Shown here: positions 5,340 through 63,708 of the stretch, one piece after another
Position numbering within the stretch: position 1 is the stretch's first letter
How the letters are laid out: every line of letters begins with the position of its first letter
From: Patescibacteria group bacterium
GTDB taxonomy: Bacteria > Patescibacteriota > Patescibacteriia > PEXW01
DNA: 64,000 bases
Reading direction: 5' to 3'
Assembly (NCBI GenBank): GCA_041665345.1
Contig: JBAYJA010000004.1
Location: 48,122-112,121, forward strand
Notes under the pieces: model-generated
Seen by the model: only the letters and a program-made list of their open reading frames with translations
The model's database searches: none
Told to the model about the DNA's origin: nothing
Made by a program: the position numbers and the translations under genes

Positions 5340-6431
5340 TTAGAAAGTGCCGGTTGCGATATAGGTAATCGCTGTGGAGTAGCTGCCGGCTTCTGTGGCC
5401 GCCGAAATATTCGCAATGTAGTGCGCGTCGATGGTCGCAGCTGCTGTAGGTCCGGCAATGGACAGGATAGCCGTGGTAGTGCCAGCAACGAACTTGAAGT
5501 TATTCGCGGACTCATCGTAGGCTGCGGTATCAGCAAAGGTGAAGGTAGCAGCGTTATCGTCAAAGCCTATTGCAAACTGCTCGGAGCCTGGGGTGCCATC
5601 CGCATCACCAGCAATGGTTGCTACGGAAATTGTGTCGCCACCGCTCGTCAGTGTGGCACCGGTGTACGTCAGGGCAACACCGTCTGTGGCATTTGTCCCT
5701 AATTGGAAGGTATGCGCAGCCTCTGGTGTAGTATCGCAGGCCGCAGGTGGTGTACCATTCGCCCAACACTCTTGCGTGGCATCCAAAACCCCAAACCCAA
5801 TGGCCACGTCCGAAATGGAGAAGGTGACGGATGGGTCAACCGTGGCGGTAACATTCACTGTATCATCATCCAGAATGGCAACTGCAAAAGAACCGCTGTC
5901 TGACGTGGTGGTGATGTCAATTTTGTAGACCGCTGCTGAGCTGGGATTGGTAATCTCGTTATTGTCGATGGTAAAGGCGATAGCACCAGCAGGAACCGTA
6001 TCGCCAGTGCAGACAGTTAACGTGTAACTTTCTCCTGGGGCACTCGCGTCAACGGATGGGTACACCTCATCTGTTGCACCAGCACATGCACCAATGTTTG
6101 CAACAATGGTCAAACCCGAAGCAGCCGAAAAATCCGTACTTGCAATAGTACCATCGAGAGTAAAGGAATCAGCCGCTGTGTCGAATGCGATAGTAATTGT
6201 CTGCGTGGCAGTGAGGTTCGTTGCGGTAGTAAAGGAAAAAGCATGCGTCCCAGCTACACTCTTCTCCAAACGGGACATGGTGTCCTTCATCCCGGTCAGT
6301 GCAGCTGCACCCACTGGCTGAATTGGCATAAAAAACCCAAGTACCCCAAGCACCGTAAAGAGCACAACGACGGTTCGGGTCGTGCCACGTTTCATGCCAC
6401 GTTTCATAAGTAGCTTGATGGGATTTTTCAT
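5340..6431 (-). CDS. Secreted protein carrying the conserved C-terminal beta domain shared with the giant protein (SCPU-like / WxL-like; inference)
   Basis: 363 aa with a signal peptide. The last roughly 165 aa (TFSISDVAIGFGVL...CWANG...GVALTYTGATLTSG...IAGDADGTPGSEQFAIGF...EAGSYSTAITYIATGTF) align with the C-terminus of the 6656..17620 protein. Confidence 0.6.
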   Translation of the reverse strand: MKNPIKLLMKRGMKRGTTRTVVVLFTVLGVLGFFMPIQPVGAAALTGMKDTMSRLEKSVAGTHAFSFTTATNLTATQTITIAFDTAADSFTLDGTIASTDFSAASGLTIVANIGACAGATDEVYPSVDASAPGESYTLTVCTGDTVPAGAIAFTIDNNEITNPSSAAVYKIDITTTSDSGSFAVAILDDDTVNVTATVDPSVTFSISDVAIGFGVLDATQECWANGTPPAACDTTPEAAHTFQLGTNATDGVALTYTGATLTSGGDTISVATIAGDADGTPGSEQFAIGFDDNAATFTFADTAAYDESANNFKFVAGTTTAILSIAGPTAAATIDAHYIANISAATEAGSYSTAITYIATGTF

Positions 6432-6517: not shown

Positions 6518-6646
6518 GTCATTCTGTGAGACGGAGTAGAGACTGTAGTCTCTCTGCAGATACAGACCAGAGGCTTCCGCCATAGGCGGATCTGCTGAGA
6601 AGTCTCTACTCCGATATATCATCATTCACGTAAGTCGAAGAATGAC
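6518..6646. repeat. MITE-like palindromic element with about 9-bp terminal inverted repeats GTCATTCTG / CAGAATGAC; contains the GGAGTAGAGACT...AGTCTCTACTCC hairpin
   Basis: Ends gtcattctg (6518-6526) and agaatgac (6639-6646). Internal 12-nt arms ggagtagagact (6534-6545) and agtctctactcc (6601-6612). Related element at 50506..50623. Confidence 0.4.
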
Positions 6647-17620: not shown

Positions 17621-17950
17621 TCGAGTTCGGTAGGTCACTTGCACCCGTTGGTGCTGCCGCGTTTGTAACTCATGCCGCATTGCCCGTTGGAAACTGTGCG
17701 TGCGGGCACGGTACACCTTTCGCGCTGACTGGGGAGCTCCGGCAACCGATGACTTTTTTGCAACTACAGTTTTCTGTCGAATCACCCCGCGTTTTGCAAC
17801 AACTCGACGACCTCTGAGTCCAAGTGGACGCGACTTTAGGTACGTCGTTGTGCTTTGCGGTTTGGGCATGGAGGAACGTTTTGTTCGCCGAACGAAGCAC
17901 TTGGCCTTCCGTGTCTTTATACAAGAATCCAATGTATATTATGCCACATT

Positions 17951-18845: not shown

Positions 18846-21767
18846 ATGGCACATGCACATGCCTCAGCACTTCGTCATCAGTCAAAAGCATCTGTACCTC
18901 GGTTTAGTGCTTTTTTGGTCATTATTCCTGCTGCCTTAGTTGTCTCCGGATTACTCTTCTCCCTTCCCCACTTGCAAGCCGGTGGAGCAGGCTTGAGTTT
19001 TCTTGGCTTCAAAAAACCAGCGCCTAGCCAAAAGTACGTCTGCCCCAGTGCCTCCTATACAAAGGACTTTACTAGTGTCTTGAAAAATGGAGTGCCAGCC
19101 AGTTCCGCACAAACCGTAGTGGAAACCAATGCGCGGTTACTGGGCCAAGCTGAGCCAAGTAAGGATCTCATTGCGAGCCGCACAGATCTCACTGCCCGGA
19201 AAACTGCACTCCTTGGTCTCATGGCAACCGCACCAGACAAAGCCTTAGCTGCAGTTTTGAGCCCAAATATTGGGGATGCGTACCAAACATGGACGACGAA
19301 CTGCGTGGAAGAACGCGTGACCGTGACGGGAAAAGTGACGGAATATGATTATACTGCGGCGAAAGGCATTGCTCCAAAAGGGCCCGATGCACTGTTCATG
19401 TTGCAAACTGTTTCTGGTAGCACTCTTGCGCTTCAACCAGCCAAAGCACTGCACACCGCCTTTCTTACAGGCGATACGCTAACCATTACCGGCTTTCAAC
19501 TTGATGACCGTATAGTTTTTGATGGTCGGTCTTCAGTGACAGTGGATCCATCCGGCCTGGGAACTGGCTACACTGTAGCGAAGGAGAAGACTAATCGTGA
19601 TGCAGTAACCGGCCCCCAAGAGACTATTGTACTGCTGGTGAATTTCCAAAATACACCTCAGCCGGCATATCCGGTTTCAACTATTGAAAACATCGTCTTC
19701 TCACAAATGAACAGCTACTACCAGCAGAATTCGTACAACAAAATTAGCATAGTTGGTGATGTGGAAAATTGGCGGACGATCCCGATGGACACGACCTGCG
19801 ATTTTGCCTCAACCATTGGGCCAGTGGTCCAAGCTTTTGATGCCGACGTTGACTTTCGTCAGTACGAACGGCTCGTGGTGTTTGCGCCGCTTGGACCCTC
19901 ATGCCCTTTCATTGGCATCAGCAGCGTTGGGCAAACCACGGTAGCGACGAATGATGGTCCGGTTGTTATGTCAACGTCCTACATCTTGTCCAATTACGCC
20001 GGCGTTGCGCTAACCGCGCACGAGTACGGCCATGGTTTGGGTCTGCACCATGCAAGTTTTTACAATTGCCCAAATACCCCCTACCAAGAAACTGGCTGCG
20101 ATATTACTGAGTACGGCAGTCCATACAGTACCATGGGTAATCATGCACTCTTTGGCTACTTCAACGCTCTGGAAAAAGATTTCCTTGGGTGGTTTGTACC
20201 ATCCAATATCGAGACGGTAACCGAAAGTGGCACCTATACCATAGATCACCTAGAAGTTGCATCAACCAATCTGAAGGCACTGAAGTTTCAGCGCTCAGCA
20301 AATGACTTTTTGTACGCTGAATACCGGCAACCAATTGGGCATGACACAGGATTTGGATCGACGAATGCCTATGACGGTGCGCTCCTCCACATTCGCGCAA
20401 ATACGGGCGTATCTGGCCCACAGGCGAACCGTTCTTTCTTGCTTGATGCTGCGCACCCACCAGTGTGGGGAAGCGCAAATGACGCAGCGTTGACCGTTGG
20501 ACAAACTTTTGTTGACCCCCTGACCAATACTTCTGTAAAGACAGTCGAAAAGGGCGACGGGGACGTAGACATCCAGGTGCAAATTGGCAAACATGACTTT
20601 ACCGCACCGCAAGTGAGTATTACATCGCCAGCTGAGGGCAGCACGGTGAGTGGCCAATTTACCGTCACTGTTGACGCACAAGATGCATCTGGAATCGAAA
20701 AAGTTGTGTTGCAGAACGGGTCACTGTTATTCCGATCTGAAATTGGCACTGACACGCAAGCCCCGTTTGCATTTAACGTCGACAGTTCCATGTTCCCAGC
20801 CGGGATCGCGACTCTCGTTGCAGTTGCCTATGATAAGTCTGGTGCGCCCTATGGAGTGGCAAATAACTCTGGGAGCAGTGGCTTCTTTACGGTGAATATC
20901 GTGGGTGGGGATGTAACTCCTCCGACCACCAGCATGACAGCTCCGCTGAACAATACCGCTGTACGAAATCTGGTCACCGTCAGTGCCCAAGCAGATGACA
21001 ACGGATTCATTAGCCAGCTGAAGCTCTTCGTGGATGGGGTACAGAAGTTCTTCCAATTTGGTGATGCCTCCAGCATCTCCGGGGTACTGGATTTAACCCA
21101 AGGGACGCACACCGCGTATTCGGTTGCAGTAGACCAAGCAGGATTAACGACGCAAAGCGCAACTTCAACTTTCGTCGTTGACAATACTGCCCCAACCGTC
21201 AGCCTGGTGGATCCTGCTCAAGGAGCTTCCGTTTCGGCCAGCATCGCACTCACCGCCACCGCTGCGGACAATGACGCTATTCAGAAAGTGGTCTTCGTTC
21301 GCGACTCTGGCACGGTCATTGGTGAAGATCCCACCGCGCCATACAGCGTTACCTGGGATACCTCACTTGTTCCTCCTGGGCCACACACCCTTGGAGCCGT
21401 GGCGTATGACCGCGCAGGGAATACCGCAACATCAAGCACGCACGCAATCACTGTGCAGGCCACTGCTACCTACGTCTGCGGGGATAGTGACAGCAACCAA
21501 ATAGTCACCATCTCCGACGCCGTCCACCTCATCAACTACATCTTCAGCGGTGGACCCGCCCCAAGCCCCTTGGTGGCAGCGGACGCCGACGGGAGTGGCG
21601 TAGTAACCATCTCCGACTCCGTCCACCTCATCAACTACATCTTCAGCGGTGGGCCGACACCAAGCTGCGTTACCAACCCACCCAGTGTGAAACTGGCACC
21701 GGATCCAACCGAAGGCCAAACCTTGCAGAGTTTCAAAGCTGCACACCCAGAGATTTTTAGCCAGTAA
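18846..21767 (+). CDS. Secreted zinc metalloprotease (HExxH) with Ig-like/BIG repeats and C-terminal dockerin module
   Basis: 973 aa. Signal-anchor LVIIPAALVVSGLLFSL. Zinc motif TAHEYGHGLGLHHA. Repeated Ig-like domains (FTAPQVSITSPAEGSTVSGQFTVTVDAQDASGIEKV...). C-terminal dockerin repeats GDSDSNQIVTISDAVHLINYIFSGG and ADADGSGVVTISDSVHLINYIFSGG. Confidence 0.7.
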   Translation: MAHAHASALRHQSKASVPRFSAFLVIIPAALVVSGLLFSLPHLQAGGAGLSFLGFKKPAPSQKYVCPSASYTKDFTSVLKNGVPASSAQTVVETNARLLGQAEPSKDLIASRTDLTARKTALLGLMATAPDKALAAVLSPNIGDAYQTWTTNCVEERVTVTGKVTEYDYTAAKGIAPKGPDALFMLQTVSGSTLALQPAKALHTAFLTGDTLTITGFQLDDRIVFDGRSSVTVDPSGLGTGYTVAKEKTNRDAVTGPQETIVLLVNFQNTPQPAYPVSTIENIVFSQMNSYYQQNSYNKISIVGDVENWRTIPMDTTCDFASTIGPVVQAFDADVDFRQYERLVVFAPLGPSCPFIGISSVGQTTVATNDGPVVMSTSYILSNYAGVALTAHEYGHGLGLHHASFYNCPNTPYQETGCDITEYGSPYSTMGNHALFGYFNALEKDFLGWFVPSNIETVTESGTYTIDHLEVASTNLKALKFQRSANDFLYAEYRQPIGHDTGFGSTNAYDGALLHIRANTGVSGPQANRSFLLDAAHPPVWGSANDAALTVGQTFVDPLTNTSVKTVEKGDGDVDIQVQIGKHDFTAPQVSITSPAEGSTVSGQFTVTVDAQDASGIEKVVLQNGSLLFRSEIGTDTQAPFAFNVDSSMFPAGIATLVAVAYDKSGAPYGVANNSGSSGFFTVNIVGGDVTPPTTSMTAPLNNTAVRNLVTVSAQADDNGFISQLKLFVDGVQKFFQFGDASSISGVLDLTQGTHTAYSVAVDQAGLTTQSATSTFVVDNTAPTVSLVDPAQGASVSASIALTATAADNDAIQKVVFVRDSGTVIGEDPTAPYSVTWDTSLVPPGPHTLGAVAYDRAGNTATSSTHAITVQATATYVCGDSDSNQIVTISDAVHLINYIFSGGPAPSPLVAADADGSGVVTISDSVHLINYIFSGGPTPSCVTNPPSVKLAPDPTEGQTLQSFKAAHPEIFSQ

Positions 21768-46077: not shown

Positions 46078-47038
46078 TTATGTACGGACATTTGGCGGGT
46101 TGGAACGAAGATACTTCCCTAGAAATTCATTTGGCGTTACGCCCTGTAGTCCGCAGTGCTCCAGGTTGTTGTACGTAGTATTCCACTGCACTAGCTTCCT
46201 GTGCAACTCCGCAGCGGAGGCAAAGGTGTTGCGATCATAGAAAGTCTCCTGGTCGGAGCGGTGGGATCGTTCCACAGTACCGTTCTGCGCTGGCTTCCCT
46301 GGATCAATGAGGTAGTGGGCGATGTCGTGCACCGCACAGTACTGGTCGAGGCCATGGACGGTCTGCACGGTCAGGTCGCTCCGTCGGTTCGTTCCCACAT
46401 ACCGGTTGGTGAAGATGCTCCCGTTATCGGTCTTCACGGCCTGGATGCGGGTGCGGGAAGTGCCGCCGCACCTCCTGCAAGAATCGTATGGCGTGCCAGG
46501 TGCTCTCGTGCTCGTAGATGGCGAGGTACCGCCAGCGTGAGGCACAGTCGATAGCGGTGTACTGGTAGTATTTCAGCCCTGCCACTGCGCCAGGAACGTG
46601 CTTCACGTCTATTTCGACCAGTTCTCCTGGCTGCCGCTCGGCTTTGAGGTATTTGTACTTTATGCGCTTCGTTCGGTACCGCCGAACTAACCCCTCAACT
46701 TTGAGGATCTTGCCAACAGTCCGTTCATGCAGACAGACACCCTCTTTCGCTAACCGCCACGCCAGTTTCAGGGCGCAGAGTTTCGTGGCCTTGCGGAGGG
46801 CGATGACCTGTTCTTTGGTGTGCATGGGTGTCTCCTGGGGGTGGGTTTTCGGCCTGGTGGACTTTGGCACCAGTCCGGTGGCACCGTGCTGGCGATAGAG
46901 GGTCACCCATCGCTCGAGAGTGCGTTGACCGTACGGGAAGACCTTGGCCACATCACAGAGCCGCACCTGCTTCTCGATGATTGGCAGAACCCAACGCAAC
47001 CGTTCTTCTTGGATTGTAGTGACCATATGGGTAGACAT
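46078..47038 (-). pseudogene. IS481-family DDE transposase, split by a -1 frameshift into two overlapping ORFs (46424..47038 and 46078..46545)
   Basis: The N-terminal ORF has an HTH plus the start of the rve domain (...YQYTAIDCASRWRYLAIYEHESTW...FLQEVRRHFP). The C-terminal ORF continues ...RIQAVKTDNGSIFTNRYVG...HYLIDPGKPAQNGTVERSHRS. The two overlap by about 120 nt in different frames. Confidence 0.55.
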
Positions 47039-47075
47039 TTCCCCAGTGTATGGGAAACCGCCATATGTCTGTACA
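46081..47075 (-). mobile_element. IS481-family insertion sequence (about 995 bp) with imperfect 21-bp terminal inverted repeats
   Basis: Left inverted repeat tgtacggacatttggcgggtt (46081-46101). Right inverted repeat aaaccgccatatgtctgtaca (47055-47075). 18 of 21 positions match in inverted orientation. The transposase stop abuts the left repeat. Confidence 0.55.
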
Positions 47076-47153
47076 CATTACCGGAGGGCATTGACAAAAT
47101 GCATATAATAACTTATACTATAAGTAGTAAGTTAATAATTAATCCAAAATTTT

Positions 47154-47645
47154 ATGGGCATAGAATCAGGAAGACCCTCGGGAGTAGAAATGGGTCTAAC
47201 TCCAAAAGTAGACTCCATTGACGATGACTTAGATCTTGTTTCCGAAAAAAAAGAAGTGAAGGATGTCGTCCCGGGTGATTGGATGCAAGTGGATAGCATG
47301 GTAGTTACTAATGACATTTCGCTTGGGAAAAAAGATTCGATTGTTGAGCGGAGTAATGACACGAATGATTCTGGAAAGTACGAAAGCAATAATGGCGTAC
47401 TTACCTATGTTACCCCTAAGGGGGAAAAATTTGTTGGCCCACGAACAGATGCACAGCTTCAGGCATTAGAGGATGCAGGGTATGAGCGACAAGGCATGTT
47501 TGTCCCCCTGTCCCATGGTGAGATGCCAATGGATCCGGAGCAACGTAAATTGTGGAAAGACATGTTAGCACGAGGCAGTGGACAAGTTGAAAAAGAGAAT
47601 CAAGAGGCTCGAGAAAAAGAATATCGGAAATCAGCAGAGAAATAA
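47154..47645 (+). CDS. Hypothetical protein (AT-rich island)
   Basis: 163-aa ORF in a low-GC segment next to the IS. Acidic/Lys-rich; no family recognised. Confidence 0.3.
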   Translation: MGIESGRPSGVEMGLTPKVDSIDDDLDLVSEKKEVKDVVPGDWMQVDSMVVTNDISLGKKDSIVERSNDTNDSGKYESNNGVLTYVTPKGEKFVGPRTDAQLQALEDAGYERQGMFVPLSHGEMPMDPEQRKLWKDMLARGSGQVEKENQEAREKEYRKSAEK

Positions 47646-50480: not shown

Positions 50481-50505
50481 CCGGATCTTCCTCCCTCTCC
50501 TCTCT

Positions 50506-50623
50506 GTCATTCTGAGTCTTCGACCTGCCCGCCGTACTTCGTCGCGAAGGCAGGCGGGAGAATCTCCGAACAATTTTTACAAACCATGGAGATTCTTCAT
50601 CCCGAAGCGGGATTCAGAATGAC
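50506..50623. repeat. MITE-like palindromic element with terminal inverted repeats GTCATTCTGA / TCAGAATGAC (relative of 6518..6646)
   Basis: Ends gtcattctgag (50506-50516) and tcagaatgac (50614-50623). Internal mini-palindromes cttcgtcgcgaag and atcccgaagcgggat. Confidence 0.4.
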
Positions 50624-50676
50624 AAAGAAGAGACCTCTACAGCTCTACGGCTTTATAGCTCTACGGCTCATCCCCC

Positions 50677-53325: not shown

Positions 53326-53448
53326 GGTAAGGGTTACCTCCCCCAACCCCTCCTTCGAAAGGAGGGGGGTGTTTGTGGTTTATGAAAACCAAGATCTTTA
53401 AACGTTCCTCCCCTTTCGAAGGGGAGGACAGGTGGGGTAACCCTTACC
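53326..53448. repeat. Nested GC-rich palindrome: outer 13-bp inverted repeat enclosing two CCTCC(C)-TTCGAA-GGAGG hairpins
   Basis: ggtaagggttacc (53326-53338) pairs with ggtaacccttacc (53436-53448). Inner hairpins at 53347-53367 and 53407-53427. Confidence 0.4.
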
Positions 53449-54057: not shown

Positions 54058-54160
54058 TTAATTTACGAATTACGAAAAGTGGTACGAATATACGAATGAA
54101 GAAGTACGGAGTAGAGACTTCAGTCTCTTGTACGATCCAGAGGCTGAAGCCTCTAGTCCA

Positions 54161-54649
54161 TCATGCTTGCACCGTGTGCGTGAGGAGGTCTAAAGAATAA
54201 CGTTTACCAGCTTGGTAGTCACGGACCATTTGCTTAATGTCTACGTCACGCAAGGTTGCACCGTCCATGGCTGCAATTTCCTCTGGGGTGAACCAACGTG
54301 TTTCCGTGGAGTCGTCAGCAAGTGCTTGCTGCGTTCCTGTAACTGTCCCGACGAAAATAAGTTTTATTGCATGAGGCATTACCGTTTCATTTTCTCGGAT
54401 ATCATGCCGGACAAGTGAGTATACTCCAAGTATATGCGTGGGTGTAAATGTGAAGCCACTCTCTTCTTGAGCTTCTCTTTGCACAGCATCAACTGGATTT
54501 TCACCTACATCAATCCAACCAGCCGGATGACTCCACTTTCCTGCATCTGGCCCTTTTCTTCCCGCTTCGCGCATGAGTAAGAATTTGCCGTCACGTTCAA
54601 TGATGGCACCAACAACGCCAAAGGTTTGAGTGAAGACACGTTGTGTCAT
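54161..54649 (-). CDS. NUDIX hydrolase
   Basis: Nudix box GWIDVGENPVDAVQREAQEESG. ATG at 54649 chosen over the TTG track start. Confidence 0.6.
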   Translation of the reverse strand: MTQRVFTQTFGVVGAIIERDGKFLLMREAGRKGPDAGKWSHPAGWIDVGENPVDAVQREAQEESGFTFTPTHILGVYSLVRHDIRENETVMPHAIKLIFVGTVTGTQQALADDSTETRWFTPEEIAAMDGATLRDVDIKQMVRDYQAGKRYSLDLLTHTVQA

Positions 54650-54651
54650 AT

Positions 54652-55053
54652 TCAATGTGCTTTAGAGGTCCTGCGCAGGATAAAATAATCACTAGCAAAC
54701 ACCGCGGCCACGAATAGACCAAACCCGGTGTACGCCCAGTAGCCAACTTTGTACCAGATGCTGGCCGCGTAGCAGATAGCAACCAGAATGAGCACGGCCT
54801 TGAAGACGATGGTTGTGAAGCGTAACGCCGGATGACGATCAAAACCCCAGACTTGCCGCAAGGTGAAGAAGCAGTCCAGGATAATGAGAGTACTACTGAT
54901 CGCGCCTGCCCACACCAATTCATTAGACAGACCGTAGCGTTGGGCCACGAACGTCATGATGATCACGACCAACCAACCACGGAAGAGGTAGGTGAACAGG
55001 AGGATGATCTCAGTGAGTGGTCGAACCTTACGCGGTTTGGTGAGGTGATACAT
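54652..55053 (-). CDS. Small multi-pass membrane protein
   Basis: Four hydrophobic helices. 133 aa. Confidence 0.4.
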   Translation of the reverse strand: MYHLTKPRKVRPLTEIILLFTYLFRGWLVVIIMTFVAQRYGLSNELVWAGAISSTLIILDCFFTLRQVWGFDRHPALRFTTIVFKAVLILVAICYAASIWYKVGYWAYTGFGLFVAAVFASDYFILRRTSKAH

Positions 55054-55164
55054 GGGTGAAGTATAGCAAGGGGTTGGTCAAGAAGTTAGGTTTGGGTAGA
55101 GCGGCGAGTATGGATAAAGGTTGCAGGTGTGGGGAAATGCAGAAGTTTCAATCATTGAGTGGGG

Positions 55165-55193
55165 TTGACAAAACTGAATAAATGCGCTACACT
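55165..55193 (+). promoter_or_regulatory. Sigma70-type promoter TTGACA-N17-TACACT, giving a roughly 150-nt 5' UTR for the CSD-fusion gene
   Basis: ttgaca at 55165-55170, tacact at 55188-55193, ATG at 55348. Confidence 0.4.
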
Positions 55194-55347
55194 ACAGCGT
55201 TCTCAACAATTGTAGGTACTTTGAAAATTGACAATTTTCATCTCCAGTTCCTTGCGTGGGAAATTCGTCTTGCGCAGGGTTGCTGGAGGTGAAAGGGATA
55301 TCTCCGAAGCAATGTGTGTGTTTGCCTGATCCCTAGAGGGAGGCGTA

Positions 55348-56751
55348 ATGCCTTACCAACAGTATTCCGGTGAAGTAGTCACCGTGAATGTCGAGAAACA
55401 ATTTGGCTTCATCGGCTTGCTGACCGTACGTTTATCGAACGACCAGGAACACGACCTGGTAACGTCGGAAGATATTTTCGTCCACCAAAATGACGTCGAC
55501 ACGACGTTAATCCCAGGATTGCGTGTTGCCTTTGACGTGGAACTCGATGACAAGCGTGGCGACGGTACGTTCCGGGCAGTGAATGTCATCGCTCTGGTGG
55601 AGCACGACTTGCTGCCGGCTATGGTGGAACCGATTCCTGGTTTCCACGTGGTGGTGCCAGCGGGTCAGAGTTTCAAACTCACCGCCTATCACGCGCAGAT
55701 GAAGGACGTGCGACCCGAGGTAGTAGCTCAGGTGGAGGCAAATCAGCCGCTGCCGGGTATTCCACGGGAAGATATCCGATTGGACAATGAAGAGACCAGG
55801 AAGTTCTTGCAGGCTTTCCTGCTGTACACGTTTCCTTCGTTGGTAGATTATGGGGCCGATTTCAACATCGGCACCCCGGATGACACGGCCATGCAGCTCA
55901 CGCTACAGGAAGCAATCGAGAGCCACCGCGCACTTGGGTTAACTTCCCAGGTGGAGGTGCTTGAAGAGGAAGTCAAACGTTTTGGTAAGTTTCGTGGGGC
56001 ACTGAACTTACTCTGGGCAGATGGCGTTGCACGGCCGGGATCTATTATTCCGATCGAGAATTTGCCGGATCTCTTTATGGCGGTTCCAGTCTGGTACCAC
56101 TACTTCGCCAACGATACCCAAGGGAAGAGTGAGGCAGTTGAAGCAGCGAATACGGATGATCCATGGGTGCATGCGCGCACTGCTTTCTTCTGCGACCTCG
56201 TGCCAACCCGGCGTTGGTCGGACCTTTACCAGATGTTCAACCGTCGGTTGCGAACCCTGGAAAACTACAAGGGGGACATCATTCCACCGCATGTTGCACG
56301 ACGGCTCCAGAACGCTGCTGAGGTGTTTGACTACTTAGTCATCGCAACTCCGTACCTGGAAGAAGCTGGTAAGGACTGGGAAAACCTGGACTGGATTCGC
56401 TCCATTGATCCGTACGTCCTGGGTTTCATCAAGGATTCTCCTGTGTTCTTCGTAGTGGCACGGTTCAGTAACAGTGGGACGTTCCCGCTGTACAACGAGC
56501 TACTCGGCGACACGGTGGAATTTCTCCGGTCGAACCGATCCAAGTTGGATGGGTTTAATACCGTCAGTAGACCGTTCTGGTACAGGGGTGGCGATACCGG
56601 CGTGAATGACGGCAACCCCTTGCGGGATTGCTTTGATGGTTTGTTAGGTCAGCATCTGAGCAAACTCACTGAAGAGCTGCTCAGGCAGTTTGACCAGGGC
56701 ACACTCTTCCCCTGGATTCGTCAGGAAGAAGAGCAACCTACTAAACAGTAG
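55348..56751 (+). CDS. Cold-shock-domain protein fused to a roughly 390-aa domain of unknown function
   Basis: N-terminal GEVVTVNVEKQFGFIGL...DIFVHQNDV...GLRVAFDV...GTFRAVNV is a cold-shock domain. The C-terminal domain has no match. AGGGAGG ribosome-binding site. Confidence 0.6.
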   Translation: MPYQQYSGEVVTVNVEKQFGFIGLLTVRLSNDQEHDLVTSEDIFVHQNDVDTTLIPGLRVAFDVELDDKRGDGTFRAVNVIALVEHDLLPAMVEPIPGFHVVVPAGQSFKLTAYHAQMKDVRPEVVAQVEANQPLPGIPREDIRLDNEETRKFLQAFLLYTFPSLVDYGADFNIGTPDDTAMQLTLQEAIESHRALGLTSQVEVLEEEVKRFGKFRGALNLLWADGVARPGSIIPIENLPDLFMAVPVWYHYFANDTQGKSEAVEAANTDDPWVHARTAFFCDLVPTRRWSDLYQMFNRRLRTLENYKGDIIPPHVARRLQNAAEVFDYLVIATPYLEEAGKDWENLDWIRSIDPYVLGFIKDSPVFFVVARFSNSGTFPLYNELLGDTVEFLRSNRSKLDGFNTVSRPFWYRGGDTGVNDGNPLRDCFDGLLGQHLSKLTEELLRQFDQGTLFPWIRQEEEQPTKQ

Positions 56752-56771
56752 ATTTTTACTGAGTACTTTCA

Positions 56772-56803
56772 AAGCAACCTCGCTCCACGGGGTTGCTTTT
56801 TTC
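56772..56803 (+). terminator. Rho-independent terminator
   Basis: aagcaacc-loop-ggttgctt followed by tttttt. Confidence 0.5.
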
Positions 56804-56831
56804 TTGACTTCCTTTCACCGCATGCTACACT
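56804..56831 (+). promoter_or_regulatory. Candidate promoter TTGACT-N16-TACACT for the HAD gene
   Basis: ttgact at 56804-56809, tacact at 56826-56831. Same -10 hexamer as the CSD-gene promoter. Confidence 0.35.
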
Positions 56832-56867
56832 TCGCGGAAATACGAAAACAAAAACAAGGAGGAAAAA

Positions 56868-57698
56868 ATGGTACGTATCCAACACGCGTTCTGTGATTTA
56901 GATGACACGCATTTACATTTCATGGCTGGCCATCGACCCGCTATTGCCTTTCTTGCCAAGGAGGTTGGCCAAAAATTTGCAAATGCATTTGATGCCACGT
57001 ATCAAGTGCTGCACCTTGGTGGTCAAGCGCAAGATGGGGATTGGTCCATGGTCCCTGGTGGCCAGGAGGCATACGAACAGCTTCGCAAGAAATTGCAACT
57101 GACAAAAATTGGCAGCCGATCCTTCCCCTGGTCACGCGAACTCGCGGCACTGCATGCGGCGCAAGTTGTGGACATGCAACTGCATCCAAGAGAGGCAGTG
57201 GAAATTGCGGCAAAGTACTGGGCGATATTGAGTAGCAATATTACGCTCTACCCAGATGCGCTGCGTTTCCTGGGCCGCTTAAAAGCAGAAGGTGTGCAGA
57301 ACCACATCTCCACTGGGTCTGACAGCAGTCTGCGCTGGGCAGAAAATGGTTGGGTGTATGACCCAAAATTGGCCAAGAAAATTAAAATGTTCCGCGTACG
57401 AGTACTTGATGAGTTTGGTTTTTCTCCGGCTAGTGTCACAACCGGAGATCCAATTGACAAACCCGATAAAGCATTTTACGAACAGGTTATGCTCAATGCG
57501 TGCATTGAAACTGACCTGACGACAATTGATCCCGCAACCTGCATCACGGTAGGTGATTCTTTCCGGGGCGACGTCGCAATGCCCATGCAGTGCCTGGGCA
57601 TTCCGCAGGGGTACTGGCTCCAGCGAGGACAACCAAGACGGCAGCTGACAGAGAACATTCACCTGATTGGCTCCTTGGACGAAATTCCGTTGGAGTAA
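56868..57698 (+). CDS. HAD-superfamily hydrolase
   Basis: Motif I FCDLDDTH (DxDxT). AAGGAGG ribosome-binding site. Confidence 0.6.
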   Translation: MVRIQHAFCDLDDTHLHFMAGHRPAIAFLAKEVGQKFANAFDATYQVLHLGGQAQDGDWSMVPGGQEAYEQLRKKLQLTKIGSRSFPWSRELAALHAAQVVDMQLHPREAVEIAAKYWAILSSNITLYPDALRFLGRLKAEGVQNHISTGSDSSLRWAENGWVYDPKLAKKIKMFRVRVLDEFGFSPASVTTGDPIDKPDKAFYEQVMLNACIETDLTTIDPATCITVGDSFRGDVAMPMQCLGIPQGYWLQRGQPRRQLTENIHLIGSLDEIPLE

Positions 57699-57720
57699 TC
57701 CGCTCATTAGCACAACAGTC

Positions 57721-58944
57721 TCACACATGTGAGGCTGTTTTTGCTTGAAAATATTTTTGGATTCGCCGTAACCATCTTCCGGTAAGTGACCCAATAACCA
57801 TCAGCCAAAAAATTCCAGTCCATCCGTACAAATCAAGCAATGGACTCCGTGTTGCATCCCACCAAGTCCAAGAGATAACGAATTGCGTCACCACAAAGCT
57901 AAAGCAAAATAGTACTACCGCCCGCAGCCAATGTCTTGGAAGAAAATAGGCGAGTGATATACTTGGCCCCAGAGTGAGTACGAGCGCTAGGAAGAATGAA
58001 TGCGTGATAAAAACAAGCACGGACATCCCCACCCCAAGAATGACCAAAATACCTGATGGCTCATTCCGTACCTGTCGTGCCACTGCGGTACGAAATGTTT
58101 GTAATCCCAAAAGCACAAATGTTACAGCTGCAACGCCGAAGGAAATGAAATGCCGTTGGATGAGAATCGGATCCATAGCATCTTTGATCGGATTGGCCAC
58201 ATAATCTATCATTTCCCTTTTAAAAGGCCAGAATACAGATTCAAGAAAAAACTCCATGAAAATAAAAACCAAAAAGGGTACGCCGATCAGCAAAAAACTA
58301 TTCAGGTAGAGCCGATCGAGTTTGAAGCGTGTCGGACCAAAGTCAGTAGGCTGTTCCATAATTCCCGCAACAAGTGTTACTGCACTTAATCCAATAGTAA
58401 CCGGAATTGCTGTCAGGAAACTGAGTAGTATATCCCAACCCACGGACTGCGGTCCGCCACCAGCGGGTGGTGTCAACATTGCCACCGTAGTGCTATATAT
58501 GAGAACCAAAATTCCAAGGTGAACAAAAAAACGCGTTAATGCATTTCCGGAACGATGCATTCTGGTCGCGGTTCGACCAACCCAAATCGCCATTGCCGTA
58601 CATCCAAAGTAGGCTACGAATTTTCCTAACATATAACTCAAACTTGCCTGCACAGATTGCCCAATGTTCGGAGCATTTTTTCCAAGGAGAAACCCTAGTG
58701 CAAGAAAAAACGCGATGCCGACAATCGGGACAAGCTGTAAACGAAAATTTGTATGCAACCACCCAATATGCACTCGGTTCAGCCGGGTGGCGAGTTGATC
58801 GGGTTTGCCCAGGGCATCTTCAGCAGATTCCGACTCGTCAACATCATCCAAATGCCCTTGCACTTCGGCAATGAGCTCTGCCCGTTTAGGTTCCCCTACC
58901 CGGAGTTTGGCGGTGAAGAGCTCTAAAAATTCCTGGGGGCTCAT
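57721..58944 (-). CDS. PadR-associated membrane protein (DUF1700-like N-terminus)
   Basis: ATG 58944 (MSPQEFLELFTAKLRVGEPKRAELIAEVQGHLDD...) overlaps the PadR stop as ATGA. Multiple TM helices. The track's 5' extension was rejected. Confidence 0.5.
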   Translation of the reverse strand: MSPQEFLELFTAKLRVGEPKRAELIAEVQGHLDDVDESESAEDALGKPDQLATRLNRVHIGWLHTNFRLQLVPIVGIAFFLALGFLLGKNAPNIGQSVQASLSYMLGKFVAYFGCTAMAIWVGRTATRMHRSGNALTRFFVHLGILVLIYSTTVAMLTPPAGGGPQSVGWDILLSFLTAIPVTIGLSAVTLVAGIMEQPTDFGPTRFKLDRLYLNSFLLIGVPFLVFIFMEFFLESVFWPFKREMIDYVANPIKDAMDPILIQRHFISFGVAAVTFVLLGLQTFRTAVARQVRNEPSGILVILGVGMSVLVFITHSFFLALVLTLGPSISLAYFLPRHWLRAVVLFCFSFVVTQFVISWTWWDATRSPLLDLYGWTGIFWLMVIGSLTGRWLRRIQKYFQAKTASHV

Positions 58945-59267
58945 ATAGCTGCAGCGTGCACAATGCGCGTGATGGTTTTTTGGAAAACCGCCCAATCCTG
59001 TTTCAACGCCTTCAGTTCCTTTTGCCCGCGCGTGGTCAGTTCGTACACCCGGCGCTTGCCTGAACTCACTTCTCGCCACGTACCGGTGATGAAACCCTTC
59101 TTCTCCAGATTGTGCAGGAGTGGGTAGAGCATGCCCATCCCGAATTTAAAGGTATCCGGCATTTGGTCACGAAGCGCCTGAGCCAAGGCATACCCATGCA
59201 TAGCTTTCTGGTCCAACGCGGCCAGGATGAGCATCCGCGAATGGCCTTTGAGTTGTTCTTTATTCAT
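58941..59267 (-). CDS. PadR-family transcriptional regulator
   Basis: LILAALDQKAMHGYALAQAL...GMLYPLLHNLEKKGFI (PadR wHTH signature). Confidence 0.7.
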   Translation of the reverse strand: MNKEQLKGHSRMLILAALDQKAMHGYALAQALRDQMPDTFKFGMGMLYPLLHNLEKKGFITGTWREVSSGKRRVYELTTRGQKELKALKQDWAVFQKTITRIVHAAAI

Positions 59268-59380
59268 ATTGTATATCGTATTACGATATAGAGAGTATAG
59301 AACATACTTTTCTTATGTCAAATGTGTACGATCTAAAAAACAGCGCACCTTTCGGTACGCTGTCAAAGAACGAAAATCAG

Positions 59381-60250
59381 TTACACTGGCCGGTTTGTCA
59401 CTAAGACAACCATCAGTACCCAAACAAGCGCGGTTACGGCGTGGTGTGTGCCGCGAATAAAGAATGTACGCAGGCCGGAAATCAACCACGTGAAGAGTAA
59501 ACACAAACCAAGGAGGAGGCATAGATACCCAGTGTTCAGTAAAGGACTACCCTCATGCGGGAATACAAGCGTAAAAAAAGTAATGGTAAATAGTGCTACG
59601 ATTCCCGCTACCCGCATACCGCCGCCAATGCCAATGTACACCGGTGGATCTTCAATGCTTACCTTCAGCGGCATATCTGCCAGATCAGGATTGCGACTTG
59701 CTTCATCTAATCGCTTCAACACTTCTCGCAAAAGATACGTTGAAAATGTAAACAACATTAGCTGTCCAATGACGCTACCCTGAGCAAAACTTGCGTCCAA
59801 TGATCCCATAACGACGCAATTCATGCAGATATAGGCGACAATTGTGCTTTGGTAAAACCAGTATCGAGTCTTACCGCAGACCAATGTGTATGCCATTACC
59901 GCCATACCTTGCATGAGCATGATCAGTAATCCTACCCATGGTAAGAAGCGGGCGCATAGGATCAAGGCGAGCAAGAAGGAAGCTGCCGCCGCCAGGAAGA
60001 GCACATGTCGGTACTCTGGGAGTGGGCGGTCAATGAATTTTGGGAGGTACTTCATTCCTCGCCACGGTGAGCCAGCGTAGAACAAACTTGCTGCCAGACA
60101 GCATAAACTCATGACCACGGCTGGCATGAACGCTGCAACTGACCACGGGTCGATCATTGTCGTGAGAAGTGTGGTTGCCCACGTGCCAGCAAAGGCAGTG
60201 AGGCAGGCGACTGGCCGGGTAGCCAGGCAAAAAATTTTTAAAGGACTCAT
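59381..60250 (-). CDS. Multi-pass integral membrane protein, unknown function
   Basis: About 8 TM helices. GGAGG ribosome-binding site upstream of ATG 60250. Confidence 0.45.
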   Translation of the reverse strand: MSPLKIFCLATRPVACLTAFAGTWATTLLTTMIDPWSVAAFMPAVVMSLCCLAASLFYAGSPWRGMKYLPKFIDRPLPEYRHVLFLAAAASFLLALILCARFLPWVGLLIMLMQGMAVMAYTLVCGKTRYWFYQSTIVAYICMNCVVMGSLDASFAQGSVIGQLMLFTFSTYLLREVLKRLDEASRNPDLADMPLKVSIEDPPVYIGIGGGMRVAGIVALFTITFFTLVFPHEGSPLLNTGYLCLLLGLCLLFTWLISGLRTFFIRGTHHAVTALVWVLMVVLVTNRPV

Positions 60251-60561
60251 CTTTTCCTCCAGGTTTTAAGTATTTTGAGTTTTTTTCACCTTAGCTCCGG
60301 ACCGATGGAATGTCAAAAGGCTAGGACTTCTTTTGAAGGAGTAGGGACTTTAGCCTCTCGTAAGTATAAGAGACTAAAGTCTCTACTCCGCCAGTAGCGA
60401 TCTATGTTCGGTTTTATGTAACCAAAAGGCGAGGTCAAGGGACCTCACCTACCCACATAAGCAATAACGAAAAGAAATGATTGACAACCGTACCGGCTGT
60501 TGGTAGGGTCAAAAAAAGACAGGATTAAAAAGATATTTACAAACCCCAAGGAGGTACGCAT

Positions 60562-61125
60562 ATGAGTAAACGTGATTGGATCATCGGTGGCCTGTTTTTC
60601 CTGGCAACACTTGTTATGTTCGCCATTTGGAAAGACAAAATGCTGGAGGTGGATGATGAGCAAACGCGAGCTGCCCAGGTTGATTACTCCATTCCGATTC
60701 TGGAGCTGCTGGCACAGCACGGGTATGATTACTCAACATCAGAAAAGCGAATTGTCGCTATCGATGATCGAAGTGATACAGCGTTCACTTTTGTTCCGGT
60801 GACGTTCTACTGTTTTTCAGACACCGGCCTAACGCCCGATACAATCTTGCAATTCTTTACGGCAGAGGGAATGGAACCTGCGACCCTTCGGGAGGCGTGC
60901 ATAGCGCTTGGTACAAATTCCCTGGTGTCTGGGGATTTCTGTGTCATCGCTTTAGGAACGAAGATGAAGGATGACCGATTCGTCAATGATGACTATAGTA
61001 CTTTTCGATTTGCTCGGTTGACGTATTGCTTGGGTGTCAAAGGTGCACAAATGGCACTGGACAATCCGATGTTGCCCGACGCAATAAACTACTACGCTGC
61101 AAAACCGAGAGCGAAGCAAACGTAA
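60562..61125 (+). CDS. Hypothetical signal-anchored protein, flanked by 32-bp direct repeats
   Basis: GGAGG ribosome-binding site. N-terminal TM segment IIGGLFFLATLVMFAIW. The repeats are at 60425..60456 and 61187..61218. Confidence 0.45.
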   Translation: MSKRDWIIGGLFFLATLVMFAIWKDKMLEVDDEQTRAAQVDYSIPILELLAQHGYDYSTSEKRIVAIDDRSDTAFTFVPVTFYCFSDTGLTPDTILQFFTAEGMEPATLREACIALGTNSLVSGDFCVIALGTKMKDDRFVNDDYSTFRFARLTYCLGVKGAQMALDNPMLPDAINYYAAKPRAKQT

Positions 61126-61149
61126 TCCACTGAAGCACATTGATGTAAT

Positions 61150-61180
61150 AAGCCGCAGGTTTGCACCTACGGCTTTTTTG
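61150..61180 (+). terminator. Rho-independent terminator
   Basis: aagccgcagg-tttgca-cctacggctt (one mismatch) followed by tttttt. Confidence 0.45.
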
Positions 61181-61233
61181 TTACGCAAAGGCGAGGTCAA
61201 GGGACCTCGCCTACCCACCTTGGGATTTACTAA

Positions 61234-63591
61234 CTAGAAATTTCCTGGACCACCACCACTGTCGTCGCGATGTGGGACGGGCCGTGGACCACGGTCGTGG
61301 AACCGGCCACCACCTCCGCCGCGAGAACCACCCCGGTCATGGAAGCCGCCGTTGCGGCCCATAGGCCGAGGCGCGTGACGACCAAAGCCACCACCGGCGT
61401 CGCTGTGGTCAAAAGCGGATTCAGGGACAACCAGGTCACTCTCTGGACCCAGAGCTTTTACGGACAGGCCAATGCGTCCGCGCTCCTTGTCCACTTCCAT
61501 CACTTTCACCTTCAGCTTCTGGCCAACCTGCACCACGTCGGACACAGCGCGGATGCGGCCATTGGCGAATTCGGAAATGTGCACCATGCCGTCCTTCCCA
61601 GGAGTGAGTTCCACAATTGCGCCAATCTCGCTCCCGGAATTCCGGTCTTTCATAATCTGGGTTACCGTCCCTTCAAACACTTCGCCTGGGGTAATTTCCC
61701 GGGTAATGTTCTCAATCCAGGTTTTGGCTTTGTCGGCCATTTCCGCATTGGTGGAGGTAATGAAGATCATGCCATCGTCTTCAATGTCAATCTTGGTCAC
61801 GTCAATGCCACCGCACTCATCAATAATCTTGTTGATCGTTTCCCCACCCTTCCCAATCACTTCGCGGATCAGGTCTGGATTGATCTTCAGAGTGGTGATG
61901 CGTGGCGCGTATGGTGAAAGTTCCGCACGTGGTGCAGCAATGGCTTCACTCATGACCTGCAGGATTTGCAGCCGGGCTTTCTTGGCGCCGGTGAGCGCTT
62001 CTTCCACCATGGGCATGGTCAGGCCGTCAATTTTAATGTCGACCTGAATGGCGGTAATGCCTTCGGCTGTGCCGGCGACTTTGAAGTCCATGCCGCCGCT
62101 GTGATCTTCAATACCTTGAATGTCGGTAATGATCTTGTAGCGGTTGGCATCCTTGGGATCCACAATCACCCCCATGGCAATACCTGCCACTGGAGCGGTG
62201 ATAGGCACACCCGCGTCCATCAACGCCAGGGATGAACCGCAGGCAGAGGCCTGTGAGGTGGAACCGTTGGAAGACAGCACTTCGGAAACCACGCGAATGG
62301 TGTACGGGAACGCTTCCTTCTCTGGGAGCACAGGCAGCAAAGCTTTTTCCGCCAAGGCGCCATGACCAATTTCCCGGCGGCCAGGGCCGCGGTTGGGTTT
62401 CACTTCACCCACAGAGTAGGAAGGGAAATTGTAGTGGTGCATGTAGCGCTTCTTGCCCGTCTCTTCCATGCCGTCCAAGGTCTGCTCATCCCCAGGGCTG
62501 CCCAAGGTGATGATGGACATGACTTGGGTTTCACCACGTTGGAACAAACCTGAACCGTGGGTGCGTGGTAACAGAGCAACGGCAGCACTGAGCGAGCGCA
62601 CTTCATCCAATGCTCGGCCATCCACGCGCTTGCCAGTTTCCAGCACCAACTCAGTGGCAGCTTCGTCAGCCAAGTCTGCCAACATGCCCACGCCAGCGGC
62701 GCGGAGCTCTTTAGACACTTCGTTGTCGGCTTTCAGCTGGACATCCAGCTCTTCCTTCAATTTTGCCATCGCGGCTTTCTGCTCAGCTTTGTCTGGACTG
62801 GCGAACAAGCTGGCTTTGCGTTCAGCGGTCAAGAAAGCTTTCACTTTCGTCTTCACTTTTTCCGTGTCGGCATTCGCTTCGGCGGTTGTCAGCTCAACCT
62901 TGGGTTTGCCAACGGCAGCAACCACGTCTTCAATGAGCGCAATGACTTTCCGAATGTGCTTCTGACCAAAATTGATGGCGTCTACCACGGTCTGCTCTGG
63001 TACCTGCTTGGCGCCGGCTTCCAGCATGACCACCTTGTCTTTGTTGGCTGCGAGTACCAGGTCAATGGCGCTCTTGTCGCGTGCTTCGTAGCTGGGGTTC
63101 AAGACCCACTCGCCGTTAATTTGGCCAACGCGGACACCGGCCAAGGGACCGTTCCACGGAATTTCGGACATGCTCAAAACCGTGGCCGCGGCAATCAACG
63201 CCGGCACGTCGGGGTCGTTCTCTTGGTCAACGGAAAGTACCAAGATGCTGACCTGCACGTCGTTCCGCGTGGACTGGTTGAACAGCGGGCGGATGGAGCG
63301 GTCAATCACCCGGCCGGTGAGGATGGCCTCATCCGTGGGGCGACCTTCCCGCTTGATGAAGCGGGAGCCTTTAATTTTGCCGGCGGCGTACAGCCGTTCT
63401 TCGTAGTCCACCATCAGGGGGAAGAAATCAATTCCTTCCCGCACGGAGTTGGAGCGAACCACGGTGGCGAGCACCACGGTGTCTCCGTAGCGTACGGTGC
63501 AAGCGGCGTTGGCGAGACCGGCGTACTTACCGGTTTCGATACTGAGGGTTTTGCCGCCAATCTCGGCGGAAAACATTTTGGGTTCTGACAT
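61234..63591 (-). CDS. pnp: Polyribonucleotide nucleotidyltransferase (PNPase) with Arg/Gly-rich C-terminal tail
   Basis: Two RNase PH domains, KH and S1 domains; phosphate-binding signature SACGSSLALMDAGVPI (conserved PNPase/RNase PH motif). Tail GGGFGRHAPRPMGRNGGFHDRGGSRGGGGGRFHDRGPRP. ATG 63591 chosen (MSEPKMFSAEIGG); the track start is GTG. Confidence 0.85.
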   Translation of the reverse strand: MSEPKMFSAEIGGKTLSIETGKYAGLANAACTVRYGDTVVLATVVRSNSVREGIDFFPLMVDYEERLYAAGKIKGSRFIKREGRPTDEAILTGRVIDRSIRPLFNQSTRNDVQVSILVLSVDQENDPDVPALIAAATVLSMSEIPWNGPLAGVRVGQINGEWVLNPSYEARDKSAIDLVLAANKDKVVMLEAGAKQVPEQTVVDAINFGQKHIRKVIALIEDVVAAVGKPKVELTTAEANADTEKVKTKVKAFLTAERKASLFASPDKAEQKAAMAKLKEELDVQLKADNEVSKELRAAGVGMLADLADEAATELVLETGKRVDGRALDEVRSLSAAVALLPRTHGSGLFQRGETQVMSIITLGSPGDEQTLDGMEETGKKRYMHHYNFPSYSVGEVKPNRGPGRREIGHGALAEKALLPVLPEKEAFPYTIRVVSEVLSSNGSTSQASACGSSLALMDAGVPITAPVAGIAMGVIVDPKDANRYKIITDIQGIEDHSGGMDFKVAGTAEGITAIQVDIKIDGLTMPMVEEALTGAKKARLQILQVMSEAIAAPRAELSPYAPRITTLKINPDLIREVIGKGGETINKIIDECGGIDVTKIDIEDDGMIFITSTNAEMADKAKTWIENITREITPGEVFEGTVTQIMKDRNSGSEIGAIVELTPGKDGMVHISEFANGRIRAVSDVVQVGQKLKVKVMEVDKERGRIGLSVKALGPESDLVVPESAFDHSDAGGGFGRHAPRPMGRNGGFHDRGGSRGGGGGRFHDRGPRPVPHRDDSGGGPGNF

Positions 63592-63708
63592 AGGCACAGG
63601 TGGCACGCCCGCTCGCCCATAGTTTGCAGTGAGTGCAGCGCCAAAAGGCAGACGCGGCGGTCACTTCAAACTTTGAACTGTGCGGTGGGTGCGGTTAAAA
63701 AAAGAGAA

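Follow-up and report, generated by a model that had tools for sequence, protein, structure and literature searches.

Two direct repeats flank ORF187

A 64,000-nucleotide stretch of DNA from a Patescibacteria genome (the window) contains a pair of 32-bp direct repeats around a single gene, ORF187, and here we describe these repeats, the family of short palindromic elements to which they very probably belong, and a transposase gene on the same contig that carries the element within its coding sequence. The repeats lie at 60425–60456 and 61187–61218, as a preliminary description of the window had claimed; they are on the same strand, 31 of their 32 positions are identical (plus-strand letters AAAGGCGAGGTCAAGGGACCTCACCTACCCAC for copy 1 and AAAGGCGAGGTCAAGGGACCTCGCCTACCCAC for copy 2), and the spacing between them is 762 nt. 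ORF187 (60562–61125, plus strand) encodes 187 amino acids (aa) with an N-terminal transmembrane helix and has the expression signals of its own that were ascribed to it: AGGAGG at 60549–60554, 7 nt before the ATG, and a likely terminator at 61152–61179 (plus strand), consisting of the hairpin GCCGCAGG-TTTGCA-CCTACGGC followed by TTTTTT. This hairpin, which was missed by a simple terminator scan because of one stem mismatch, could serve the neighboring pnp gene as well, i.e., act bidirectionally.

Both copies are intergenic according to the gene calls of locus L010. Copy 1 sits between ORF187 and a divergent gene (59381–60250, minus strand). Copy 2 sits between ORF187 and the convergent pnp gene (polynucleotide phosphorylase or PNPase, 61234–63606, minus strand), in the 3' flank of pnp, where it starts 15 nt past the stop codon with its GGGTAG tag 17 nt past. 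A search for extra copies of the 32-mer, which the preliminary description had proposed, returned none within the window at up to 3 mismatches, with 0 expected from 100 shuffles.

Anatomy of the repeats

On the plus strand, the palindrome within the repeats reads GGCGAGGTC-AAGG-GACCTCGCC, a 22-nt hairpin with a 9-bp stem and a 4-nt loop. The stem length given earlier is therefore correct, but the loop has 4 nt rather than 3, and the stem is perfect only in copy 2. On the minus strand, the sequence takes the form GGGTAG followed by the hairpin GGCGAGGTC-CCTT-GACCTCGCC, which places GTAG at the 5' foot of the hairpin (GTGG-GTAG-(GCGAGGTC CCTT GACCTCGC)C). Written out in this orientation, copy 1 is GTGGGTAG-GTGAGGTC-CCTT-GACCTCGCC-TTT, with one G.T mismatch in its stem, and copy 2 is GTGGGTAG-GCGAGGTC-CCTT-GACCTCGCC-TTT. 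Folding as single-stranded DNA (ssDNA) gave −12.2 kcal/mol for copy 2 (z −5.7 against shuffles) and −8.9 kcal/mol for copy 1 (z −4.8).

GTAG is the defining tag of repetitive extragenic palindromic (REP) sequences (PMC3733652, PMC3333891). Since the minus strand of each copy has GGGTAG followed by a hairpin with a 9-bp stem and a 4-nt loop, the copies bear the REP signature, and we consider it very probable that the 32-mers are single REP units (singlets) of a GTAG-tagged family whose REP-associated tyrosine transposase (RAYT) is encoded on the same chromosome.

The repeat extends further than first described. While the 32-mer is its core, local alignment showed that the similarity of the two copies spans ~49 nt (60409–60456 versus 61169–61218), with 97% identity in the core and 75% in the left flank. 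The added flank has 12 matches in 16 positions, for which P is ~1e-4 when compared with random 16-mers of the window. For copy 1, this flank is CGGTTTTATGTAACCA (60409–60424, plus strand), which keeps CGGTTTT without a hairpin; for copy 2, it is CGGCTTTTTTGTTACGCA (61169–61186, plus strand), which overlaps the 3' half and the T-run of the ORF187 terminator.

An integron cassette would likewise show a lone gene between direct repeats that contain palindromes, its attC sites being folded single-strand recombination sites that flank single genes and are recombined by an IntI-type integrase. We regard this explanation, raised in the preliminary description, as extremely improbable. The repeats lack the R''/L''/L'/R' organization of attC and its GTTRRRY/RYYYAAC core (the nearest sequences, GTTACGC and GTAACCA, do not fit), they have no extrahelical bases, and the palindrome, perfect in copy 2, is just 22 nt long. 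The enclosed gene comes with a ribosome-binding site and a terminator of its own, and instead of a cassette array there is just the one pair of repeats. IntI is absent here; the nearest tyrosine recombinase is Xer-like, lies outside the window ~6.8 kb from ORF187 (~6.7 kb from repeat 2), and keeps its syntenic position in relatives without ORF187.

The repeats belong to a family of GTAG-tagged hairpins found in other genomes

We scanned GTDB, with one genome per species, using the 22-nt hairpin. The 22-mer was found at nine loci (L001–L009) in six metagenome-assembled genomes (MAGs), four of which are labeled Patescibacteria and two 'uncultured Gammaproteobacteria', with one or two exact 22-mers per genome. 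At all nine loci, the 22-mer makes up the 3' half of a bigger element, GGGTAG-hairpin 1-linker (6–12 nt)-hairpin 2-CTACCC. Hairpins 1 and 2 follow a single plan (GGGTAG, 5 variable bp, GGTC CCTT GACC, and 5 bp) and are inverted relative to each other. Inverted REP doublets, as in bacterial interspersed mosaic elements (BIMEs) and REP doublets forming hairpins (REPINs), are built in this way. The family pattern with a variable lower stem is GGGTAG-N5-GGTCCCTTGACC-N5. A metagenome scan with GTAGNNNNRGGTCCCTTGACCY yielded 21 loci, about nine of them with the full hairpin and with differing lower stems. Inverted doublets of this CCTT-loop family were observed at L001–L009, L035, L037, and L047. 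Those at L002–L008 lie between long open reading frames (ORFs), the exceptions being inside RAYT, mutL, and mutS genes. No match to the REP pattern was obtained in viral contigs.

Alignment of 32 units (alignment A2), which both window copies fit in tag and hairpin, showed no variation in the top 4 bp or the CCTT loop; GTAG is present in 26 of the 32 units, the remainder having GTGG, ATAG, or GTAC. The five lower stem pairs covary: double changes occur in 49 cells (12.1 +/- 4.4 for shuffles), and the share of paired cells is 99.3% (19–45% in slid controls), a percentage that is inflated, to the detriment of our interpretation, because the metagenome part of A2 was picked by stem extension. The hairpin-1 partners at the GTDB loci were not selected for pairing, and all of them pair, with four different stems. 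Rfam gave no match at the repeats, either for the window at the gathering threshold or for L001–L009 and 60200–61400 in E-value mode; its sole signals were weak miRNA-model matches on a neighboring long hairpin.

Units of the 32-mer family also occur at L014, where they lie in frame inside mutL (3795–3830, ...SGRRGPLTTQ...) and mutS (4487–4520). We considered this locus as a second direct REP pair around a gene and rejected it, as the units are inside the two coding sequences. In-frame REPs in other genes, notably repair genes, are already known (PMC3733652).

A RAYT gene on the same contig contains the element

The preliminary description had suggested looking elsewhere in the genome for a cognate integrase or recombinase. 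Such a recombinase-like enzyme does exist. While no RAYT was detected inside the window by tblastn, the 1,075,605-bp contig that contains it (ena:ERZ27249449:k141_1145919) encodes a RAYT of the Y1/HUH type, P0017, at record position 46,625–47,215, ~976 kb away from ORF187 (record position ~1,022,994). P0017 scored 106.8 bits against NCBIfam NF047646, 'REP-associated tyrosine transposase' (cutoff 80), and has both the HUH motif (HFH) and the tyrosine motif YIHNNP. In the PDB, E. coli TnpA_REP (4ER8) is its sole relative. P0017 was one of 70 relatives returned by a homologue search for the RAYTs; wherever the source name of a relative identifies an organism, it is a Patescibacteria or other candidate-phylum MAG.

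The coding sequence of P0017 itself holds an in-frame inverted doublet, CTGGGTAGGCGAGGTCCCTTGACCTCGCC-TGGTGGAAAACG-CCCGGGTCAAGGGACCCGGGCTACCCAC, whose left unit is identical to repeat 2 at 27 of 27 positions (shared stretch GGGTAGGCGAGGTCCCTTGACCTCGCC). On the window's contig, this doublet is at L035 10288–10360; internal doublets were likewise found at L001 (~6130–6200), L009 (~1330–1400), and L047 (~3290–3365). In L001 and L009, the doublet is inside a 196-aa ORF, in frame, and encodes GRRGPLTSP...GQGT(R/Q)AT; these ORFs scored 103 and 98 bits, respectively, against NF047646 (cutoff 80) and also match Pfam Y1_Tnp. In L035, the RAYT gene lacks the flanking REPs of a REPtron: no intact unit lies beside it, and the doublet is within the coding sequence. 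L001 (CAZBMC010000003.1) is one of the loci labeled 'uncultured Gammaproteobacteria'. It shares the UvrD-RAYT-LigT-MgsA neighborhood with L035, and its RAYT is ~84% identical to that of the window's contig; the label looks wrong.

The E. coli enzyme binds REPs only as single strands, needs GTAG, and cleaves between C and T (C|T) in the inverted partner or the linker (PMC3333891). By analogy, the REP hairpins described here, when single-stranded, would be substrates for RAYT binding and cleavage, and P0017 is the candidate enzyme for this family. The earlier suggestion that the repeats are sites for a recombinase-like enzyme may thus be accepted in the sense that they are putative RAYT sites.

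We then aligned 40 RAYT homologues. In most of them, an insert separates the HUH helix from the WQxxFYDF motif. In ~17 of the 40, the insert reads GRRGPLTSP..GQGTxAT, which is a translated CCTT-loop doublet (the DNA was checked for L001, L009, L035, and L047), and in another ~11 it reads GRRKPSLSPY..ASEGSRLP. The latter group is represented by RAYT P0028 at L045 (3001–3546), where the insert is a CCTC-loop doublet, GGGTAGGCGAAAGC CCTC GCTTTCGCC ... GCGAGC GAGG GCTCGCGTCTACCC; the doublets located 3' of pnp in L038 and L039 share this loop type. The shortest homologues have no insert. One of these, P0064 at L046 (2840–3700), has a doublet of a third type, GGGTAGGTTTGGGTC TCCT GACCCAAAC, on either side, in the manner of a classical REPtron. 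Therefore, the REP type tracks the RAYT subclade, P0028 having CCTC/GAGG inside and P0064 having TCCT on its flanks. Third-codon identity is 0.71–0.91 in the doublet compared with 0.27–0.63 in the rest of the RAYT gene, indicating that the DNA itself is constrained.

Separately, in a sister species (L047 3001–3660, ena:ERZ27249449:k141_1331312, and L048), the RAYT gene has a premature TAA after ...HRRMSE, with the frame beyond it still open, and an identical 131-aa product of this truncated RAYT was seen in a second sample. The sister-species gene has possibly been inactivated recently.

Judged by their sequences, Patescibacteria, members of the candidate phyla radiation (CPR), carry several GTAG-tagged REP families with a RAYT clade of their own. 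The in-frame cognate doublet inside most RAYTs of this clade is a new arrangement for REP-RAYT systems; in a limited literature search, we found no papers on REP/RAYT in the CPR or on a REP doublet inside a RAYT coding sequence. With this arrangement, nature offers a test case for how a domesticated transposase remains matched to its substrate over long periods. There are also consequences for annotation. Near-identical 22–32-mers common to distant CPR genomes, like peptide inserts of the 'GRRGPLTSP' type in RAYT, MutL, and MutS, should be read as REP insertions, not as contamination or conserved protein motifs. Taken alone, the pair in the window is an ordinary REP pair.

The 3' flank of pnp carries a palindromic doublet in every relative examined

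To compare the locus among strains and relatives, contigs were retrieved by exact ORF187, by the 289-aa neighbor protein, or by PNPase (P0072). All retrieved contigs represent one population or species: they are 99.98–100% identical, have the same arrangement, and all carry the 60457–61186 segment, whose presence or absence the preliminary description had proposed to compare. Because these strains are identical, they give no presence/absence information, and the relatives, at ~80% PNPase identity, are too diverged for that comparison. The view that the locus was recently rearranged could likewise not be upheld, as the species contigs are 99.98–100% identical and the repeat flanks have already diverged to 75%. 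In one contig, L012 (logan:SRR6484324_38077), the assembly breaks off at 7797 with the final base of repeat 2, which would fit a break in the assembly graph caused by the repeat.

Outside this population, the closest PNPases share 77–82% identity. Their loci have a common backbone, Xer-type integrase ... rpsO-NYN-pnp-[variable]-cmk-like-RNase HII-methyltransferase-UPF0102, in which the interval from pnp to the cmk-like gene (window ~54100–61200) holds different genes in L037, L038, and L040, with the rest of the neighborhood syntenic. In every relative examined, a GTAG-type palindromic doublet follows directly after the pnp stop, and these doublets come from three different families. L037, a sister species from the same sample, has a full doublet of the 32-mer's own family, which starts at the same offset as in the window, 17 nt past the stop codon of pnp; in L038 and L039, the doublet is of the CCTC/GAGG-loop family, and in L040 it is of the GGAGTAGAGACT family.

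The repeats could also be explained at the RNA level, as duplicated terminators or mRNA-stabilizing stem-loops that are under selection for this role, have no mobility as DNA, and resemble the sequence inside the RAYT gene incidentally. Repeat 2 is the first hairpin past the pnp stop, some stable palindromic doublet is there in every relative examined, the minus strand of copy 1, and no other strand of either copy, passes a simple terminator scan, and REPs are known to act as barriers to mRNA decay (PMC3733652). However, copy 1 lies between divergent genes and thus has no upstream minus-strand gene to terminate; neither copy has a T-run on the plus strand, and copy 2, whose minus strand does follow pnp, has only TTTG. 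ORF187 has its own terminator, so the duplicated terminators proposed in the preliminary description do not account for the pair. A terminator role also leaves the GGGTAG tag, the constant loop, and the exact identity to the RAYT-borne copy without explanation, and no Rfam family matches. As a replacement for REPs, we find this account very unlikely. An RNA role is compatible with the REP explanation, and repeat 2 would then form a stable hairpin in the 3' untranslated region of pnp.

Origin of the two copies

Because the sister species keeps a full doublet at the same offset from the pnp stop, repeat 2 is probably what is left of an old doublet just 3' of pnp that was reduced to a singlet. 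Repeat 1 has ~49 nt in common with repeat 2, some of them from the neighboring terminator tail, and would therefore most likely have arisen locally as a copy, through duplication or recombination at the REP, and not by an independent insertion. The chance that two units lie in adjacent spacers in the same orientation is ~2% (two units, ~60 intergenic spacers); together with the P of ~1e-4 for the flank, this suggests that the copies are related by a local event. The direction of copying is suggested by the flanks: that of copy 2 is part of the ORF187 terminator, and copy 1 keeps CGGTTTT without the hairpin, as would be expected if copy 1 derived from a copy-2-like sequence. Local duplication followed by drift of the flanks and conservation of the core is, jointly with REP-mediated recombination, the most likely scenario. 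The core would be kept by interaction with the RAYT or by a function of the hairpin while the flanks drift.

Several observations weigh against the REP interpretation and the history outlined above. Classical REPs number hundreds per genome. Here, two singlets and one doublet were present in the ~85–90 kb of this genome that was examined, and the other 20 kb around the RAYT gene contained no REP units beyond the internal doublet. A strict scan of the window for GTAG with a perfect stem of at least 7 bp retrieved repeat 2 alone; the window is therefore not REP-rich. The stem of copy 2 is perfect, while E. coli TnpA_REP requires a stem mismatch, and the window copies are direct singlets, not the inverted doublet that is thought to be the mobile unit. 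Finally, orthology of repeat 2 and the L037 doublet is a matter of position only, the 17-nt spacers being unrelated.

ORF187 and the possibility of a REP-bounded cassette

ORF187 matched no family in Pfam or NCBIfam, and a word-indexed search of 5.8 billion proteins returned only the protein itself. Two more matches were obtained by an exhaustive phmmer search: a 188-aa protein homologous over its full length (E 5e-24; identity 39% according to phmmer and 36% according to BLASTP) and P0193, a 2219-aa protein from another metagenome with seven stretches that match ORF187 residues ~51–122. ORF187 thus qualifies as a real gene; its family is rare, its product has a membrane anchor at the N-terminus, and, given the repeated match in P0193, it may be a free-standing copy of a surface-protein module. 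A single-sequence AlphaFold2 model had a mean pLDDT of 54.5, too poor for a fold search.

The placement of this gene between direct REPs raises the possibility, already contained in the preliminary description, of a cassette insertion: a 762-bp unit made of one REP and ORF187 with its own signals would have entered at a resident REP 3' of pnp. Entry could have been by recombination of the resident REP with a REP on a circular intermediate, RAYT-catalyzed or homology-driven; alternatively, REP-ORF187-REP could move like an IS200/IS605 element with end hairpins in direct orientation. Either route leads to direct REP copies on both sides. Consistent with a cassette, the REPs exactly bracket one self-contained gene of a very rare family, the two copies are not independent, and the sister species already has a REP 3' of pnp. 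The interval between pnp and the cmk-like gene is variable and has a lower GC content (43–50% over ~57.6–61.2 kb compared with 54–62% in pnp), and TnpA_REP carries out strand transfer in vitro (PMC3333891). On the other hand, there is no empty site or excised form among the species contigs, which are all identical; the whole ~9-kb interval, not ORF187 alone, differs from the relatives; and the GC content of ORF187 equals that of the neighboring genes. Neither a second example nor a second copy of the unit was found, the direct pair of L014 being inside mutL and mutS. To our knowledge, RAYT-driven movement of cargo genes has never been shown. We therefore judge a REP-bounded cassette to be rather unlikely.

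A broader proposal joins this idea to the embedded doublets: REPs would serve as attachment sites for gene capture in genomes as small as these, with REP-ORF187 inserted at an ancestral REP 3' of pnp by RAYT-mediated single-strand recombination and still mobilizable as a cassette bounded by hairpins, and the RAYT clade would keep an in-frame master copy of the REPIN within the RAYT gene. If this were true, the transposase and its substrate would be inherited as one unit, which would explain the near-invariant REP across RAYTs that are ~55% identical. In its full form, this proposal strikes us as quite improbable.

Comparison with known REP and hairpin systems

The REP elements described here resemble the REPs and BIMEs of E. 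coli, which are associated with TnpA_REP (RayT/YafM; 4ER8), in that GTAG is directly 5' of a short GC-rich hairpin, the units are single or in inverted pairs with a short linker, and they are extragenic, often just 3' of genes. The enzymes correspond as well, each being a single-copy Y1/HUH transposase of the same NCBIfam family, with 4ER8 as the only relative in the PDB (PMC3333891, PMC3479197). Unlike the E. coli REPs, which have hundreds of copies and an obligatory stem mismatch, the present family has a very low copy number in the sequence examined and a perfect stem. In addition, neither its loop nor its hairpin top varies among genomes in which the RAYTs are only ~55% identical, and the RAYT contains a doublet in frame and is not flanked by REPs.

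In the REPIN-RAYT systems of Pseudomonas (Bertels and Rainey), inverted REP doublets also fold into a larger hairpin and the RAYT is single-copy and vertically inherited, which is matched here by the UvrD-RAYT-LigT-MgsA neighborhood common to L001 and L035. The doublet in those systems is the presumed mobile unit, and singlets are its decay products. The two systems differ in that Pseudomonas REPINs flank the RAYT and form large populations, whereas here there are two direct singlets and an intragenic doublet in the RAYT. A further match is the GTAG-tagged REP superfamily (Di Nocera et al. 2013, PMC3733652), which has the GTAG tag, head-to-head and tail-to-tail dimers, sites after convergent or unidirectional genes, and in-frame REPs in repair genes, represented here by mutL and mutS of L014. 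That survey lists Proteobacteria, Cyanobacteria, Chloroflexi, and the Planctomycetes-Verrucomicrobia-Chlamydiae (PVC) group, but not Patescibacteria, and its RAYT genes are flanked by REPs or terminal inverted repeats (TIRs) and do not contain REPs (PMC3733652).

IS200/IS605 elements (e.g., IS608) and their non-autonomous derivatives, the palindrome-associated transposable elements (PATEs), likewise bracket a cargo with a pair of similar subterminal hairpins that face the same way on one strand. A Y1 transposase, acting in cis or supplied in trans, recognizes these hairpins in their ssDNA form. The similarity to the window pair is a resemblance only, as no cleavage tetranucleotides or guide sequences, no transposition footprint, and no second copy of the unit were identified here.

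Other palindromic repeats and surface-protein genes in the window

A second GTAG-containing palindromic family is represented just upstream of copy 1 by a doublet at 60338–60389, GGAGTAGRGACTnnAGYCTCT ... AGAGACTnnAGTCTCTACTCC. The preliminary description had noted this GGAGTAGAGACT-type hairpin; it is real, and it is an element of a kind related to the 32-mer REPs. The doublet pattern of this family, GGAGTAGAGACTnnAGTCTCT ... CTACTCC, also occurs in the window at 6531–6612 and 54106–54160 and in L040 at ~8400–8460. All of these copies are intergenic, and the L040 copy sits 3' of pnp.

Two large compound palindromes were observed at 53326–53448 and 50496–50633, with folding energies of −39 and −34 kcal/mol, respectively, as ssDNA and with internal hairpins such as CCCCTCCTTCGAAAGGAGGGG. 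Neither matched Rfam at the gathering threshold, and they may be more repeat families or structured RNAs. The window also encodes a 3758-aa ORF (6656–17932, minus strand) of the kind typical of giant surface proteins, and a direct repeat at 21502–21665 with 99-nt spacing encodes a dockerin-like 'INYIFSGGP' motif, again typical of a giant surface protein.

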